NCBI GenBank assembly: GCA_017515795.1
Contig: JAFWEE010000013.1
Coordinates: 2,010-66,009, forward strand
DNA length: 64,000 nt
Direction: 5' to 3'
From: Bacilli bacterium
GTDB taxonomy: Bacteria; Bacillota_I; Bacilli_A; RF39; UBA660
Position 1 is the stretch's first letter, and every line of letters starts with the position of its first letter. Of the stretch, positions 8,511-48,819 are shown in pieces. Under the pieces are notes generated by a model, which did no database searches, was not told the origin of the DNA, and was given only the letters and a program-made list of their open reading frames with translations. The translations under genes and the position numbers were made by a program.

Positions 8511-8789
8511 CTATTCAGGTATTCTTATTATTATTTCTCCATCTTTAGAATATAAATACTTTTCTCTAGCGTATTTCTCTATATAATCAGGATCTTGTAA
8601 CTTAGTAACAGTTCCTTTTAATTCTTCTTCTTTATCTTTTAATACTTCTAATTGAGTAGTATATTCTTTCTTTTCAGCTTTCTTCTTATATATATCTACT
8701 ACTGTTGAGCCTACACTTTTTATAAGCACAAAACCAATAGCAATATAAACAATAGCAAATAATAAAGTTTTCTTACTTATATTTTTCAT
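8511..8789 (-). CDS. divIC: Septum formation initiator (FtsB/DivIC family)
   Basis: N-terminal TM, coiled coil, LQDPDYIEKYAREKYLYSKDGEIII. Confidence 0.8.
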   Translation of the reverse strand: MKNISKKTLLFAIVYIAIGFVLIKSVGSTVVDIYKKKAEKKEYTTQLEVLKDKEEELKGTVTKLQDPDYIEKYAREKYLYSKDGEIIIRIPE

Positions 8790-15991: not shown

Positions 15992-17530
15992 TTAAAAAAT
16001 TATTTCCACACAATTTTCGTTAATGATATTTTTAATATAGTTTATAAAAGGTATTAATAATTTTGTGTTATCTTTAACTAATGAATATAAATTATATAAA
16101 TATTCGAAATAACATTTTTCAATTTCTACTTCAGAAAAAACTGTTACTCCATCAAGGAAATATGACATTTTTACTTGATCATTGAATAATAATTTATCTA
16201 ATTTATAAGGTATATTTTCAATTAGTTCTTGTACATTGATTTCAGAAAGTTCATATGATATTTGAAATCTAACATCTAATTCTGAATTACCAAATCTATC
16301 AGTTTTTTCATAATAAACAATATTGTTCATAATATCAGTTAATTGTTCTTTTATTTCCTTATTAGTGATTTTTTTATCCACTATAATCTCTTCATTTACT
16401 TTTTTGCTCTCTTTAAATCTTTTTATATCTTCTTCTATTTGTTCAATACTTTGATATCTTTCGTTTTGATCATTTATTAAACATTTATCAATAATTTTAT
16501 CTAAAAATTCCATTCTAATACCTTTATATTTATCAGTAATAGGTTTGCGGTGTGTTCCTTTATGTGGCTCATTATATACAATCCATTGCATTATTTGACC
16601 TATTGAAAATATATCAGATGCCTCAGTAGGTGTTTTCTTTCTATCTCGCTGTTCAGGAGCAGAAAAATCAAAGTTTGCCAATCTATCTCCTTTTTGAGTT
16701 TTAATATTTATATCAAAATTATCTGGATTATAATATGCTATCCCAAAATCAGCAATATTTAATCTATTATTTTCGTCAATTAGGATATTGTTTGGCTTAA
16801 GATCTCTATGAATAATTCCACTAGAATGTAGCTTTTTTACCGCATTTATTATTTGTGTAAATATCAATATAATTTCATCATCGGAAAATTTTTCTTTATA
16901 GATTAGGCTATTATTATACTTTTTCATAACTATAATAGGAACTCGTGCTTCATTAATTATTATATCATCATAAAAATATTGTTTAACTATTCCTTCAAAA
17001 TTATTAATTTCCATAATAACATTAATAAATTCGCGAAGAAATCTTTCCTTTTTTTCAGCAGTTGAGTTCGTAAGAATTTTAATAGCTACATCATGCTTAT
17101 TTAATTCTCCAAAATATACTTTGCCATTAGCTCCACATTTACATTCAAGAGATACATTTTTTATACATCCCATTCTTGTATTTATTTCAAAGTTGTTTTC
17201 TTTTAAATATTTACTTATATCCATTTCTTTAGAATAAACTTTTGTTTCTACATTCATATTATTCTCCATATTATCAATTAATGGGTAAATTATTTCTTTT
17301 AGTCGATCTCTTCTTTTTTCATATCCACCTATTTTTTGAAATTCGTGTCTTAAATCATGTTTTGTTTTGGATTTTTTTAATTCATTTGGAATATCAACAT
17401 TATATTTAACAAGACATTTCTTTAGACTATTCAAATTATTATAAAATAAATTTTCATCATAATCATTTTTATTATATGTAACAATGTCCTCTAATGCTAA
17501 ATAAAAACCTTTTAACTCTTTTATATCCAT
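15992..17530 (-). CDS. Hanks-type Ser/Thr protein kinase, soluble, with extra N- and C-terminal domains
   Basis: [32 protein letters not shown] all intact; no TM or PASTA. Confidence 0.92.
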
Positions 17531-17562
17531 GATACCCTCCTAAAATAGCTTTATTATATCAC

Positions 17563-17990
17563 AAAAAAAGAGCAAGAGTACAGGTAAATTCCCGCAGTCC
17601 TGCTCAATATTCTTGGTGCACGAAAAGACAGTACAGCAAGTATTTATAATTAGAGCTGTGGGAAATCGGTATGATCGCCCATCAAATGGTGCTCTAATTA
17701 TATAATTAATAGTTGGAGCCTCCAACCACTATCATAGCAACTGGATTAACGCTCCAACTACCGCATTTCTTACTATCCAGTTATATTTAATTAACTATAT
17801 TTCTAATTTGAATCTCCTATAGTAAATCGTAATAAATCTAACATATAAGTATTTTATAATTGTATCTTGTAACAAGCACATAACATGTAATTTGCAAGAG
17901 TATTAAAAAATCTATATTGGATAGTAAAAAACACTTGGGCTAAAAACTTTATATTTTATTTAATCTACAAAATAACTTAGTAGAACCCCA
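17563..17990 (-). ncRNA. Candidate ~430-nt structured RNA downstream of the DIP1984-like gene
   Basis: Helices 17645-56/17691-702 (12 bp), 17710-19/17751-60 (10 bp) crossing 17739-46/17775-82 (8 bp), long-range 17770-79/17918-27 (10 bp); GC-rich hairpin plus U7 at 17563-17605; no credible ORF. Confidence 0.65.
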
Positions 17991-17994
17991 ACTG

Positions 17995-18495
17995 CTAAAT
18001 CTCAAATTCAACAGAATTCAACTTAGATATTTCAAAGTCTGTTTTCTGTATTTCATTATCGATTTCTTCTAGTCTTTCTCTTAGTTGTTTAGAGTCGAAG
18101 TTTACTTTCTTACACTCAAAATAAGAATTATTAACTTCAGTTACTCTCTTTTTCGAATCCTTTAACATTAATAGTTGCTCATAAGTTGATTTAAGCTTTC
18201 TTAAATTAGTATTGTCTACTATTGCTTGTTGTATACTTCTTCCGTCGCTTAGTTTAAACTCGTTGTTTCTATCATATAGAATTCCCTTTAATTTAGATAA
18301 TTCAGTAGCACTTCTTTCTATTTCTTTTAGATCTAGATCAAATTCTTCTTTATTATCTTCAATTACGTTAACTCTTCCATCTAGTTCTTCAACTGATGTG
18401 TTGATAGCATACCCTTTAATAGAATAACATCTACTATTTAAGTATCTTTCATATTCTGATATTAAACTCATTAATGCTGAAATATTAGTTTTCAT
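17995..18495 (-). CDS. Coiled-coil protein, DIP1984/DUF6847-like
   Basis: 166 aa from ATG 18495 (AAAGGAG RBS); helical hairpin pattern, SIQQAI, C-terminal LEEIDNEIQKTDFEISKLNSVEFEI; family call from memory. Confidence 0.5.
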   Translation of the reverse strand: MKTNISALMSLISEYERYLNSRCYSIKGYAINTSVEELDGRVNVIEDNKEEFDLDLKEIERSATELSKLKGILYDRNNEFKLSDGRSIQQAIVDNTNLRKLKSTYEQLLMLKDSKKRVTEVNNSYFECKKVNFDSKQLRERLEEIDNEIQKTDFEISKLNSVEFEI

Positions 18496-18548
18496 TATAA
18501 TCACTCCTTTTGATGTAATTAATATTACTACACTAAAAGACGTAAGTG

Positions 18549-18565
18549 GTCGCGAAAAAAGCGAC
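18549..18565. promoter_or_regulatory. GTCGC-N7-GCGAC palindrome, putative operator
   Basis: GC-rich inverted repeat in an AT-rich 83-bp gap between the HTH gene stop and the next start. Confidence 0.6.
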
Positions 18566-18578
18566 AAAAAAAATACTG

Positions 18579-18947
18579 TTATAAAACAGTACCTGTGTAA
18601 GTATAGAGATAATCGTTTATGATATTTAAATCATAAATCTTCTTATCTAGACAAAACGCAATAACCAAATCAAATCTAGTATTACTTAATGAATATCCAG
18701 CACTATTTAACAATCTGTTAAAGTCATTTCTGTTTAAACATAAAGCAAGTCCTAGTTTGATAACTACATTCCTTCTAGGAATATAGTTGCTACTACATCT
18801 TATCTTAGAAAATAATTTTCTATCTATATCTACCTTTTTGTAAATCTCAGAATCCTTAACGCCCTTTTCATCTATGAAAGAGAAAAGAATTTCGTTAAAG
18901 CACATTGATCTACTGTGACTTAAATAGTCCTTGCAAACCTCTTTCAT
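18579..18947 (-). CDS. XRE-like HTH protein (family also seen fused C-terminally to macro domains)
   Basis: FIDEKGVKDSEIYKKVDIDRKLFSKIR...KLGLALCL...LLNSAGYSLS..FDLVIAFCL. Confidence 0.75.
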   Translation of the reverse strand: MKEVCKDYLSHSRSMCFNEILFSFIDEKGVKDSEIYKKVDIDRKLFSKIRCSSNYIPRRNVVIKLGLALCLNRNDFNRLLNSAGYSLSNTRFDLVIAFCLDKKIYDLNIINDYLYTYTGTVL

Positions 18948-19095
18948 ATGAACCTCCTATAATTTTAAAATTCTTAAATACACCGAATAAGTGTAATTTC
19001 TACCCAAATCATAAGGTTCAATCACTTATAATTACATTAGGACTTTCATATAAAAAATATTTAAATCACAGAGTTGATTTCTCAACTCGTTATAA

Positions 19096-19124
19096 AATAT
19101 ACCATATAATTGTTAATATGTCAA
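19096..19124 (-). promoter_or_regulatory. Sigma-A promoter of the HTH gene
   Basis: TTGACA-17 bp-TATATT with extended -10 TG on the minus strand. Confidence 0.75.
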
Positions 19125-19162
19125 AAAAATAAATATAATATCATATCTCTCCTTATATATTA

Positions 19163-19209
19163 TTTTATATTTTAGAAATATTTTTTAAGATAATTTCTAA
19201 AATATAAAA
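19163..19209. repeat. 17-bp inverted repeat; arms shared with 23620..23668
   Basis: TTTTATATTTTAGAAAT / ATTTCTAAAATATAAAA. Confidence 0.8.
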
Positions 19210-19233
19210 ATAAAACCAAGAATAATCCTGGTT

Positions 19234-21225
19234 TTATAGTTTACTAAACTGTGAATTATATAGGTTAGCATAAAATCCATTTTGTTTCATAAGCTCTTCA
19301 TGATTACCTATTTCTATTATATTACCTTCATTCATAACAAGTATTAAATTAGCATTCTTAATAGTAGATAATCTATGAGCTATTATAAATGAAGTTCTAT
19401 TTCGAGTTAATTTATCCATAGCTTTTTGTACTAGTTCTTCTGTTCTTGTATCTACATTAGATGTAGCTTCATCTAATATTAAGAATGGAGCATCTTCTAT
19501 CATACCTCTTGCTATAGTAAATAATTGTTTTTGTCCAGATGATATAGATTCATTATCTGTAATCATTTCATCTAATCCATTAGGTAATGTTTTAATGAAG
19601 TGGTCTACTCCTACTATTTTACAAGCTTCCATTATTTCTTCATCTTTAATATTTGGTTTATTATATTTAAGATTATCTTTTATAGTACCTTCAAATAACC
19701 AAGTATCTTGTAATACCATACAGAATAACTCATGTATATTCTCTCTAGATAAATCTTTTATAGATATACCATCTATTAATATATCTCCATCATTTATTTC
19801 ATAAAACTTCATAAGAAGATTAACTATTGTAGTTTTACCTGCTCCTGTAGGACCTACTATAGCTATTTTCTCACCAGGATTAACTTTAATACTAAAATCT
19901 TTAATAATAGTTTTACCTTCTGTATATCCAAATTTAACGTGATCAAATATTATTTCTCCTTTTGCCGAAGCTTTATCTAGATGTTTAGTTATATCCTCTT
20001 GATGGTTCATTTCTTTTTCATTTAAGAATTCTAATACTCTTTCAGAAGCTGCTGCTGTAGATTGAAGTGATGTCATAGATTGAGCTATTTGATTTAATGG
20101 ATTAGTAAATAATCTAATATATATCATAAAGGCTACTATAACTCCAAAAGTAATAGTATTCTTAGATACTAATAAAGCTCCAACTACACATACTGATACA
20201 TATCCAAAATTAGATATAAATCCCATAAATGGACCCATCATACCAGATAAAAATTGACTCATCATATTACTCTTATATAGACCTGTATTTAACTTATTAA
20301 ACTCTTTCTTAGTCTCTTTAGTACCATTATAAGTCTTAACTACTACATGAGAAGAATAAGTCTCTTCTATATATCCATTTAGGTCTCCTAATAACTTTTG
20401 TCTCTTATTAAAATACTTTTGAGATTTAGATAACATTATAAACATAAATATAAACCCAAATATACTAGATCCTATAGCAGTTAATGCCATTATATAATTT
20501 GTATAAAACATCATAACTATAGACCCTAAAAATAGTGTTAAATTAGATACTAATGTTATCAAAGAATTATTAAGATTAAATGATATAGCATCTACATCAT
20601 TAGTAACTCTAGAAAGGATGTCTCCTGTTTCATGATTATCAAAATAATTTAATGGTAAATTATTTATTTTAGTAGATATATTAGTTCTAAGTTTCTTAGC
20701 AAACTTATTAGATACTGATGCCATAGAAACCCCTTGTATATAATTAAATAAGGCTCCTAAAATATATAGAATTAATAAGATTATAGATATATGTTTAATA
20801 TTATCTACATTCATTTTAGGTTTAACAAGAGAATAAATACTCTTAGGTAACTTATCAAATTGTTTTAAAGCATTATCTTCATTAGTATTAGACATAATAG
20901 TTATAAACTCTTGTTGATCTTTAACTGTTATTGTAGTGTTATCTATAACTATAGGTCCTCTTAAATAATTATTTTGTACTTTAGTAGAAATTTCCTCTAA
21001 TTTTTCAGTATTAGGTTTAATACCATTAGTTATTTCATCTGTTAAATCAGATAATCTATTTGGAGCAATAATACTGAATATAGAACTTATAATAGCTAGT
21101 ATTAATGCTATAAATAGAACTACTCTCCAAGTTTTTAATTCTTTTAATAGTTTAAATATTGAACCAAAGAAATTCTTTGGTTTTTCTGTAGTATTCATTC
21201 TAGGCATTTTGAAGTTCCTCCTCAC
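19234..21225 (-). CDS. Multidrug-type ABC exporter, TMD-NBD subunit 2
   Basis: GPTGAGKTT, ISSGQKQ, LILDEATS, IAHRL; six TM helices. Confidence 0.92.
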   Translation of the reverse strand: MRRNFKMPRMNTTEKPKNFFGSIFKLLKELKTWRVVLFIALILAIISSIFSIIAPNRLSDLTDEITNGIKPNTEKLEEISTKVQNNYLRGPIVIDNTTITVKDQQEFITIMSNTNEDNALKQFDKLPKSIYSLVKPKMNVDNIKHISIILLILYILGALFNYIQGVSMASVSNKFAKKLRTNISTKINNLPLNYFDNHETGDILSRVTNDVDAISFNLNNSLITLVSNLTLFLGSIVMMFYTNYIMALTAIGSSIFGFIFMFIMLSKSQKYFNKRQKLLGDLNGYIEETYSSHVVVKTYNGTKETKKEFNKLNTGLYKSNMMSQFLSGMMGPFMGFISNFGYVSVCVVGALLVSKNTITFGVIVAFMIYIRLFTNPLNQIAQSMTSLQSTAAASERVLEFLNEKEMNHQEDITKHLDKASAKGEIIFDHVKFGYTEGKTIIKDFSIKVNPGEKIAIVGPTGAGKTTIVNLLMKFYEINDGDILIDGISIKDLSRENIHELFCMVLQDTWLFEGTIKDNLKYNKPNIKDEEIMEACKIVGVDHFIKTLPNGLDEMITDNESISSGQKQLFTIARGMIEDAPFLILDEATSNVDTRTEELVQKAMDKLTRNRTSFIIAHRLSTIKNANLILVMNEGNIIEIGNHEELMKQNGFYANLYNSQFSKL

Positions 21226-26184: not shown

Positions 26185-26285
26185 ACAAAAAAACATCCTA
26201 GTTCAATGTAATTACACTGTCCCATGGATGTTTATCCACTGTTATATATTATAACCCGACTCCTAATGGTCTGATCAGTTTTACT
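26185..26285 (-). promoter_or_regulatory. NiCo (czcD) riboswitch with terminator
   Basis: Minus strand AAACTGATCAGACC..GTCGGGTT..AACAGTGG..CCATGGGACAGT matches the NiCo aptamer pattern; ACATCC/GGATGT-U7 terminator; upstream of a CDF gene. Confidence 0.8.
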
Positions 26286-26334
26286 TAATTAAATGTAAGT
26301 AAATTATAATATATGAAGTTATATTAGTCAATTA

Positions 26335-48693: not shown

Positions 48694-48722
48694 TTGACTA
48701 TAAATACTAAATATAGTATATT
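48694..48722 (+). promoter_or_regulatory. Sigma-A promoter of ffs-tadA
   Basis: TTGACT-17 bp-TATATT, placing the start near 48729. Confidence 0.75.
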
Positions 48723-48728
48723 AAACAT

Positions 48729-48799
48729 GCACAACGAGAAAATTGGAACCTGGTCAGGACAGAGATGTAGCAGCCATAACAGTTCCTTCTCGTGTGTGC
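48729..48799 (+). ncRNA. ffs: Small signal recognition particle RNA (4.5S-type)
   Basis: GGAACC-TGGTCAGG-ACA-GAGA-TGT-AGCAGCC helix 8 signature; terminal stem GCACA.CGAGAA/TTCTCG.TGTGC. Confidence 0.88.
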
Positions 48800-48819
48800 T
48801 TTTTTATTGGAGAAACACT

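Follow-up and report, generated by a model that had tools for sequence, protein, structure and literature searches.

A conserved cassette of uncultured Bacilli couples a DUF6847-fold protein gene with a structured 3' RNA and a candidate regulator-operator pair

Introduction

The DIP1984 family has had a structure since 2009 (PDB 3KDQ), and to our knowledge the function of any of its members is not known. TRAP binds 11 (G/U)AG triplets in the trp leader, and OLE RNA with OapA is a large bacterial non-coding RNA with a protein partner. The Ro60 protein (Rsr) and the bacterial Y RNAs (YrlA/YrlB) are often encoded together with RtcB (PMC4201824). The locus described here lies in a 64,000-nt stretch of DNA (the window; contig JAFWEE010000013.1, positions 2,010 to 66,009, assembly GCA_017515795.1) from a Bacilli bacterium, and comprises a cassette of ~1.4 kb on the minus strand, from 19124 to ~17709, in the order promoter, leader, helix-turn-helix (HTH) gene, palindrome, DUF6847 gene and 3' RNA. 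The protein and the RNA of this cassette are considered here as the parts of a candidate ribonucleoprotein.

The comparison set consists of ~45 related loci, of which contigs are coded L and genomes G, and searches of relatives were made in a family set of 401 genomes; the relatives are uncultured Bacilli or 'Tenericutes' with genomes of ~1 Mb, and the assembly of the window is 684 kb (0.68 Mb), 66% complete, with 25.8% G+C. The original prediction, made from the letters of the window, had placed a promoter, an HTH open reading frame (ORF), a palindrome, a second protein ORF, an RNA and a terminator in one orientation, and all of these were found where it had put them; Pfam, NCBIfam and PADLOC scans of the unit bear out its statement that no enzyme, reverse transcriptase or nuclease lies inside.

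A structured RNA linked to the DUF6847 gene

The 166-aa ORF (18495-17995, minus strand) is followed on its 3' side by a non-coding stretch of 464 nt (17994-17531, minus strand), which folds far better than its shuffles (z -4.4 for the whole and -5.9 for the 3' 261 nt). DUF6847 genes of the comparison set are followed by a conserved RNA of ~290 nt, which starts 3-8 nt past the stop codon and consists of a three-stem element (hp3), a clamp helix, an AT-rich loop and a terminator hairpin, in that order; the full 3' architecture is carried by 32 of 33 distinct DUF6847 loci.

The element hp3 (17994-17932, minus strand) is 55-60 nt long, lies directly after the DUF6847 stop codon, and was found by aligning the sequence 3' of DUF6847 genes from 24 loci. 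It is formed by the stems P1 (GGG/CCC), P2 (UCUAC/GUAGA, with the conserved loop UAAGUUAUUUU) and P3 (AAAA/UUUU), and includes the linker UUAAAU; this linker does not vary, nor does most of the P2 loop. All five P2 pairs covary, with 99% of alignment cells paired, and P1 and P3 also display compensatory changes; the covariation of the element is 0.449 against 0.233 in shuffles, is reached by none of 500 shuffles, and collapses when the partners are slid by one to three columns. At the DNA level hp3 is 82-98% identical, compared to 70-82% for the coding sequence. Matches to a covariance model of the element occur in 11 of the 401 family genomes, one in each, and all 11 lie directly behind a DUF6847 gene (five with an adjacent HTH gene). 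The coupling of protein gene and structured 3' RNA that the original prediction proposed thus extends to these relatives; on the evidence of sequence comparison, the two are co-inherited and belong together.

It is hardly credible that what is described here amounts to fortuitous hairpins and ordinary terminators of AT-rich intergenic DNA. Such sequence does make many weak hairpins, and the distal hairpins H2-H4 described below are indeed not conserved; the reading is nonetheless already contradicted by the comparative data, namely by the fold scores (z -4.4 to -5.9), covariation above that of all 500 shuffles, and an architecture constant in position at 32 of 33 loci. A known RNA family was also sought and rejected: Rfam 15 at the gathering threshold, run on the whole window, gave no match on the cassette RNA, and a permissive scan of 17400-19300 (E <= 10) returned noise, with no meaningful score over the RNA. 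The P2 hairpin with its flank (UUCUACUAAGU...GUAGAUUAAAU, 17990-17964) resembles UCUAC...GUAGAU, which we take to be the hairpin of the Cas12a clustered regularly interspaced short palindromic repeats (CRISPR) of Lachnospiraceae; a role for hp3 as a mimic of that repeat was set aside, the stem covarying freely and no CRISPR repeat model being matched, and the likeness is probably a coincidence.

Directly after hp3 lies the 5' strand of a long-range helix (17-20 nt; GUGUUUUUUACUAUCCA, 17934-17918, minus strand), which pairs with a 3' strand ~140 nt away (UGGAUAGUAAGAAAUGC, 17779-17763, minus strand); the cognate duplex in the window is predicted at -23.7 kcal/mol, compared to -13.0 kcal/mol for shuffles. 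This clamp helix is 13-21 bp long and covaries, its 3' strand sits at a near-constant distance from the stop codon (mostly 200-217 nt past it), and a hairpin with a T-run follows right after. The helix sequences vary between loci while complementarity is kept in 32 of 33 distinct loci, with compensatory pairs such as ACTATCC/GGATAGT, ATTATTC/GAATAAT, CTTGTTGTC/GACAACAAG and CATTTTGACA/TGTCAAAATG. Duplex energies are -14 to -25 kcal/mol as opposed to -10 to -13 in dinucleotide shuffles, and for 27 of 32 loci the observed energy is reached by at most 3 of 100 shuffles. When the full downstream regions were paired across loci, cognate strands had a mean of -18.6 kcal/mol and non-cognate strands -11.2; of the 31 loci, 15 had the cognate partner in first place and 26 had it among the top three.

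The helix also bears on the suggestion that the conserved non-coding region acts as DNA, either as a recombination or integration boundary or as promoters and operators (TTACAA and ACAATTTA boxes) for the cargo genes. The breakpoints of homology coincide with the cassette ends, the downstream cargo is variable and co-oriented, and loop motifs of the ACAATTTA type resemble the box at the HTH transcription start; against these points stand compensatory changes in hp3 and in a helix with strands ~140 nt apart, which argue for selection on a single-stranded fold, the absence of an integrase or transposase nearby, and the promoters that the cargo genes have for themselves past the terminator, and a DNA-level role is judged very improbable.

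The clamp helix encloses an AT-rich apical loop (~136 nt in the window, 17917-17780, minus strand; 100-160 nt among loci, where it is very AT-rich) with TTACA and ACAATT motifs. Its repeating unit is UUAYAAU, in runs of two to five, and 7-nt units of this kind are clearest at ~17898-17850. Pooled over 31 loci, the identity autocorrelation of the loops peaks only at a lag of 7 (0.454 vs 0.381, z = 8.1), and the spacing histogram of TTA[TC] has a sharp peak at 7; the loop of the window taken alone gives p = 0.024, and TACAATT in the loop is enriched 29-fold over its genome frequency. The periodic, U-rich loop that had been claimed for this RNA is thereby confirmed. Two other readings of the loop were rejected: a small ORF, as short ATG frames are not kept between loci, and an internal promoter, as no consistent -35/-10 pair is seen among loci.

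The simplest account of the region would make it only a cis-acting 3' untranslated region (UTR), serving exonuclease protection, termination or the tuning of translation, or else the source of a pairing small RNA, in either case not bound by the DUF6847 protein. The RNA begins within 3-8 nt of the stop codon, has no visible promoter of its own and ends in a terminator; the gene linkage is as expected for a UTR, and distant members of the DUF6847 family manage with a plain terminator. A simple stabilizer, however, needs neither an unpaired UUAAAU and P2 loop that are invariant and exceed the coding sequence in conservation, nor a loop of near-constant length with a 7-nt periodic array; the invariant unpaired bases and the array imply a sequence-specific trans-acting factor, which is not necessarily DUF6847. 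The purely cis-acting account is considered unlikely, while keeping an appreciable share of the probability.

In the window the clamp helix is directly followed by H1, a 12-bp hairpin (17762-17709, minus strand) that is the positional equivalent of the T-run terminator that ends the RNA in other loci, and that displays two compensatory changes relative to the closely related contig L053 (GGAGC/GCTCC vs GGGAC/GTCCC). The T-run of H1 is weak in the window and in L053, so that read-through to the strong terminator at 17605-17563 is plausible in the window. The hairpins H2, H3 and H4 occupy 17705-17563 (minus strand), with the H4 stem at 17605-17570 and its T7 at 17569-17563; H2-H4 are present only in contigs of the same species, apart from H3 and the terminator, which recur with 86% identity behind an unrelated small gene in G006, another species of the genus, and the 401 family genomes hold no other match. 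A single 430-nt RNA reaching 17563 was rejected, since the homology with L053 ends after H1 and H2-H4 have no relatives save that in G006. The large structured RNA with terminator therefore stands as first described for the part from 17994 to ~17709, which is conserved with the gene, but not for its last ~140 nt (17705-17563); H2-H4 lie outside the conserved cassette, as junction sequence toward the kinase gene that follows, and probably serve as a stop for read-through.

The copy of H3 and the terminator in G006 (G006:C2:6039-6117, L002/L044) is found after an array of small genes and before hydrolase-like and RelA/SpoT-like genes, and H3 with the terminator may be a common junction or terminator module between island cargos. 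The array upstream of it (L002, G006:C2, 1591-2691) contains four tandem paralogous small genes on one strand, which encode helical proteins of 67-84 aa with motifs such as 'IEMIEWL...KAL(K)I.HLEE'.

The DUF6847-fold protein

The 166-aa protein scores 27.0 bits against PF20935 (DUF6847; cut-off 27), or 26.4 in a six-frame genome search, and 30.4 bits against NF038048, the NCBIfam model of DIP1984 (cut-off 70). A profile built from 41 sequences matches PDB 3KDQ with an E-value of 7e-6; the AlphaFold2 model (predicted local distance difference test (pLDDT) 96) has 3KDQ as its sole significant Foldseek match (E 5e-4, template-modelling (TM) score 0.65-0.69). The fold is predicted to have four long helices and two β-hairpins, with conserved R117 and Y125 in a hairpin; the helical, DIP1984/DUF6847-like protein first suggested is supported in that its fold is that of 3KDQ, although the hairpins make it something other than a plain coiled coil. 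The structure 3KDQ was deposited with four chains. No mention of DUF6847 or DIP1984 was found in the literature searched.

Relatives of the protein form a narrow clade, with 114 clusters (50% identity) at E <= 1e-3 among 1.8 billion representatives. On present sequence comparison, the specific RNA described here is a feature of the DUF6847 clade with at least ~50% identity, since more distant relatives do not have such an RNA. A distant DUF6847 gene (26% identity) in L102/L103 (1127-1607) lies in a phage-like context with YonK, metallophosphatase and ClpP genes; it is followed by a gap of 480 nt in which GCCAATTCGTTTC pairs with GAAACGAATTGGT ~300 nt away as a 13-bp long-range helix, possibly a counterpart of the clamp helix on a larger scale.

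The regulator gene, its leader and the candidate operator

The cassette begins with a sigma-70-type promoter, TTGACA-17-(TG)TATATT (19124-19096, minus strand), with 11 of 12 consensus matches and an upstream TG; the original prediction of a consensus promoter is upheld. The -10 element TATGnTATATT is kept in relatives, and homology begins at the -35. The promoter is common to all HTH loci. It is followed by a structured 5' leader of 148 nt (~150; 19095-18948, minus strand), which opens with the hairpin GAGTTGA-gaaa-TCAACTC (19088-19071, minus strand; covarying as GAGTTAA/TTAACTC and GAGCTGT/TTAGCTC) and continues with an invariant box, GTGATTTAAAT (19069-19059, minus strand), which contains the palindrome ATTTAAAT. 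Every HTH locus has a box with ATTTAAAT immediately behind the -10, in the form GTGATTTAAAT among close relatives and ACAATTTAAATATTT among distant ones; the former also have the covarying 5' hairpin, an inner covarying hairpin and a UCCUAU complementary to the ribosome-binding site. In the window UCCUAA(U) (19042-19036, minus strand) is complementary to the ribosome-binding site AUAGGAGG (18960-18953), and the UCCUA/UAGGA pairing is kept in 13 of 13 aligned leaders. As an observation apart from the RNA, pairing of UCCUAU with the ribosome-binding site AUAGGA is possible in this leader, which may form an independent translational switch. The ATTTAAAT box at the transcription start is a second candidate site for the HTH protein, which would allow autoregulation.

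The HTH gene (18947-18579, minus strand) encodes a 122-aa protein with an XRE-type fold. No family in Pfam, NCBIfam or PADLOC matches it at E <= 0.1, including HTH_3, HTH_19 and HTH_31, and there is no sequence or profile match in the PDB. The AlphaFold2 model, built from an alignment of 20 sequences, has eight helices (pLDDT 89); its best Foldseek matches are nearly all Cro/C1-XRE regulators (C.Esp1396I, C.AhdI, C.BclI, ClgR and DdrO), with target-normalised TM scores of 0.68-0.78 over 60-77 residues and weak E-values of 0.06-1. The model and these matches together indicate the five-helix Cro/C1-type fold; the gene is accordingly XRE-like by model, as had been said of it, but not by family, as the HMM (hidden Markov model) check gives no match. 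In all, 784 homologues were found. Two HTH homologues contain one in-frame stop each (TGA in G093:C67:726-1079, TAG in G431:C2:184365-184733), and may be pseudogenes, sequencing errors or cases of an alternative genetic code.

The stop codon of the HTH gene is enclosed by hairpin A, TACTG-ttttaTAA-CAGTA (18591-18566, minus strand), which is followed by T8 and is terminator- or attenuator-like; its stem covaries among loci (GCTG/CAGT, CACCT/AGGTG, ACGC/GCGT). Palindrome B, GTCGC-N7-GCGAC (18565-18549, minus strand), starts 13 nt past the stop codon, with GTCGC at 18565-18561, a 7-nt spacer, and GCGAC at 18553-18549. Its sequence is invariant among loci and does not covary, it occurs once in the 684-kb assembly where ~0.04 occurrences are expected from base composition, and the DUF6847 gene has a conserved -10-like box, TAGTAAAAT/TAATAT, ~25-45 nt further downstream. 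In whole-genome searches, palindrome B is present upstream of DUF6847 in all eight DUF6847-positive genomes that encode the HTH protein anywhere (one of them with a compensated variant, GTCTC/GAGAC, and one with a shortened arm), and G064 has the box upstream of DUF6847 although its HTH gene sits on another contig; the four DUF6847-positive genomes that lack the HTH gene have no box or only a half-site. The palindrome is considered a candidate operator because the presence of the box tracks the HTH gene in eight of eight versus none of four genomes, and for the proposal that it is the HTH operator this co-occurrence is good comparative evidence. The box is also found upstream of DUF6847 at loci without an adjacent HTH gene, and 3' of the HTH gene ahead of RtcB and DUF2828 cargos. 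An ordinary terminator was judged unlikely, as the palindrome is invariant, most of its variants are uncompensated, and its presence tracks the HTH gene; it could also act as an attenuator.

The regulator is an optional partner, about half of DUF6847 loci having no adjacent copy. An obligatory pair of HTH and DUF6847 was rejected, since an adjacent HTH gene was missing from four of the first five family-genome loci and from six of the 11 covariance-model matches. Of the fourfold co-occurrence of HTH gene, palindrome, protein and 3' RNA that had been anticipated, the linkage of RNA with protein (32 of 33) and of palindrome with HTH gene is thus retained, but the HTH gene is not a fixed member.

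Other genes behind the same regulator and box give a theme to the comparison. In L075 the order is HTH gene, palindrome B, RtcB (PF01139, E 5.5e-55), a second palindrome B, DUF6847 and RNA; three other loci have the HTH gene and palindrome followed by a hairpin-rich leader of ~170 nt and a DUF2828/DUF7788 gene. L022 has a Macro gene immediately upstream of its HTH gene, and L053 has one downstream of the cassette. Searches with tblastn against plasmid and chromid records found the HTH domain at 34-41% identity, as the C-terminal part of a 337-aa 'O-acetyl-ADP-ribose deacetylase' of Peptoclostridium and also under macro-domain annotations in Vescimonas and Selenomonas; the original statement that this HTH type is fused to macro domains elsewhere is thereby corroborated. 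On account of the RtcB, DUF2828 and Macro neighbours and the macro fusions, the regulator may be linked to RNA-end repair and ADP-ribose chemistry, a link that is suggestive only.

The ~170-nt region between the HTH-plus-palindrome unit and DUF2828/DUF7788 (L042 4555-4790, with equivalents in L022 and L036) contains two similar hairpins, in which an A(U/C)ACAGCAAA loop segment is followed by UUGU (GACAC...GUGUC, GCCAC...GUGGC); Rfam gave no match for this region, which could serve as a leader or as a further partner RNA. In L075 (6791-8068) a 425-aa protein that combines DUF6996, DUF6997 and DUF7226, all uncharacterized, is encoded immediately behind the DUF6847 RNA.

Genomic setting and relation to the defence island

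Upstream of the cassette, two ABC-transporter genes on the minus strand end at 19234 and have their own terminator (19237-19210). Downstream, a 512-aa Ser/Thr kinase gene (17530-15992, minus strand) matches the PD-T4-6 and mad6 defence models, and is followed by genes for a 249-aa protein, an HNH nuclease, a DGQHR protein, a C5 methylase, a BglII-like nuclease and a 500-aa protein; the kinase, HNH, DGQHR and BglII-like nuclease genes are on the strand of the cassette, the C5 methylase gene being an exception.

The limits of the cassette are given by L053, a metagenome contig from the European Nucleotide Archive (ENA) with an HTH protein 95% identical and a cassette 91-95% identical to those of the window. 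The two DNAs are near-identical from the -35 region through the end of H1, with similarity absent upstream of the -35 and downstream of H1. The flanks in L053 are a relaxase gene with small ORFs at one end and, at the other, a 152-aa gene, Macro, DUF4313 and TraG/VirD4. In L090-L096 the same cassette has different flanks again; flanks in contigs other than L053 include TelA/Band_7 with a restriction-modification system of the DpnII type, MazG or PPDK at one end with Maf, Bro and RhuM at the other, and MMPL with a DUF285 surface protein. In two of these contigs variable genes are followed by the backbone of mini-RNase III, SpoU and sigma-factor genes as in the window, and some copies of the cassette have housekeeping flanks. 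It is from these differing surroundings that the cassette is regarded, by sequence comparison, as a discrete unit that borders a variable hotspot and not as a functional part of the defence island.

The island nonetheless invites the explanation that the cassette is an anti-phage or toxin-antitoxin-type module, in which the RNA neutralizes or senses for the protein as in type III toxin-antitoxin systems or abortive infection. The cassette adjoins kinase, HNH, DGQHR and restriction-modification genes, and other copies lie beside restriction-modification, RhuM or Bro genes or in a conjugative element. This explanation is held to be improbable: in PADLOC the 166-aa protein matched only LmuB (E 0.02, coiled-coil noise) and the HTH protein nothing, and the genes on either side vary around a constant cassette, some copies having housekeeping flanks. 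Unlike ToxIN-like type III systems, the RNA here is downstream, its repetition is confined to the 7-nt loop units, the protein has no nuclease fold, and there is no antitoxin RNA with tandem repeats upstream. Relatives of the DUF6847 subfamily were absent from the phage, plasmid and viral-contig collections searched, and a phage or plasmid origin of the cassette is for that reason not supported. Its placement at the distal edge of the defence island, as originally described, is accurate as to position, the cassette adjoining island genes, but the cassette is not island machinery, for its flanks vary while it remains constant.

Several further observations concern the surroundings. In L053 (1-8369) the cassette lies within a conjugative or mobilisable element with a MobA/VirD2-like relaxase gene on one side. 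An inverted repeat, TATTTTAGAAAT...ATTTCTAAAATA (19163-19209), is found just upstream of the cassette promoter in the window; it recurs 3' of an HTH homologue in G006 (L044 ~8640-8720), and by strict pattern search is single-copy in the window assembly. Rfam matches at the gathering threshold elsewhere in the window are a NiCo riboswitch (26215-26288, minus strand) and a small signal recognition particle RNA (48719-48812, plus strand), which are ordinary and unrelated to the cassette.

Proposed mechanism and significance

The best explanation of the cassette, to which we give an even chance, is that of a regulated unit, distinct from the defence genes, in which the DUF6847 protein and its own 3' RNA form a ribonucleoprotein; as part of that explanation, and with confidence just as evenly balanced, the location beside the defence island would reflect a variable chromosomal hotspot and not a common function. 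A dimer of the HTH protein would bind the palindrome, and probably also the ATTTAAAT box at its own transcription start, keeping the cassette repressed until a signal is received. The releasing signal may relate to RNA damage or ADP-ribose, which is proposed because the HTH domain is fused to macro domains and because RtcB, DUF2828 and macro genes are likewise headed by the HTH gene with its palindrome. The DUF6847 mRNA would then carry the structured RNA as its 3' part, to be bound by the oligomeric helical protein; likely contacts would be the invariant single-stranded UUAAAU with the hp3 loop, the periodic array that the clamp helix exposes, or both. Such a ribonucleoprotein would have damaged or foreign RNA as its target, in a manner broadly like that of Ro60 with Y RNA.

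A number of points weigh against this explanation. The strict linkage of gene and RNA would be expected equally of a purely cis-acting 3' UTR, and the production and stability of the RNA and its binding by the protein are at the level of a candidate. In G199, a close relative and the single exception among the 33 distinct loci, hp3 and the 5' strand of the helix are lost while the 3' strand and the terminator are kept, and in two DUF6847 relatives (~31% identity) the gene is followed by no more than a plain terminator or a gap of 42-45 nt to a convergent gene. The periodicity of the loop is modest, with runs of two to five units and individual significance in 14 of 31 loci. No HTH family matches the HTH protein significantly by sequence, and the Foldseek E-values cited above are weak. 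The RNA-damage link is drawn from a single locus with RtcB, three with DUF2828, and macro domains present as fusions or neighbours; RtcB is absent from the loci other than L075, and neither RtcB nor DUF2828 is seen in the window's 66%-complete genome.

A broader reading is that DIP1984/DUF6847 proteins and cognate 3' RNAs make up a widespread, undescribed ribonucleoprotein, which in gut Bacilli would be part of an RNA-damage regulon with RtcB, DUF2828 and macro proteins, switched by the HTH protein through GTCGC-N7-GCGAC; the HTH protein may sense a product of RNA repair derived from ADP-ribose, as its domain is also fused to macro enzymes. This reading is a doubtful one and is offered tentatively.

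The dedicated covarying RNA provides the first concrete and testable hypothesis for the DIP1984 family, namely that the protein is an RNA-binding partner. The RNA lies outside Rfam and would represent a new class of non-coding RNA in bacteria, of an unusual layout in which a clamp helix presents a periodic array; the regulator-operator pair and its links to RtcB, DUF2828 and macro genes outline a possible RNA-damage regulon in reduced-genome gut Bacilli that are not yet culturable. For annotation, a conserved cassette beside a defence island needs to be checked before it is assigned to that island.

Comparison with described systems

The closest protein is DIP1984 of Corynebacterium diphtheriae (3KDQ; Pfam DUF6847, NCBIfam NF038048), which has the same fold as the 166-aa protein; the two are only 17-19% identical, and the window protein is below the NCBIfam cut-off. 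For the regulator, the best structural matches are C proteins and small XRE regulators such as C.Esp1396I, C.AhdI, ClgR and DdrO, which are small and dimeric and bind a short palindrome beside the genes that they control, as is proposed for the cassette protein. Unlike C proteins, the cassette HTH protein has no HTH_3 match, carries an extra N-terminal helix and C-terminal helices, and has macro-fused homologues; its candidate operator is GTCGC-N7-GCGAC and not a C-box.

The loop recalls TRAP in that a short unit recurs at fixed spacing in an unstructured stretch, which would suit an oligomer that reads one unit per subunit. The period in the cassette is 7 nt (UUAYAAU) in its short runs, whereas TRAP triplets are separated by 2-3 nt; moreover, the cassette protein is helical and not a β-sandwich ring, and its array is in a 3' RNA instead of a leader, with no evident attenuation logic. 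With OLE RNA the cassette RNA shares the character of a long, covarying Bacillota non-coding RNA that is tied to particular protein genes and whose biochemical role is not known; it is much shorter, has no similarity to OLE in sequence or model, and is predicted to be part of its partner's own transcript.

Compared to the Ro60-Y RNA system, the cassette has no TROVE/vWA protein by Pfam and no match to a Y RNA model, and the fold of its helical protein is unrelated; its RNA is 3' of the gene in what would be the same transcript, and the protein-RNA pair is a candidate known from sequence comparison. The likeness lies in a small, dedicated, structured RNA encoded beside a protein, and in one locus (L075) in the neighbourhood of RtcB; in addition, Deinococcus radiodurans, in which Ro60-Y RNA has been studied, is the only one of 14 control genomes that has DUF6847.

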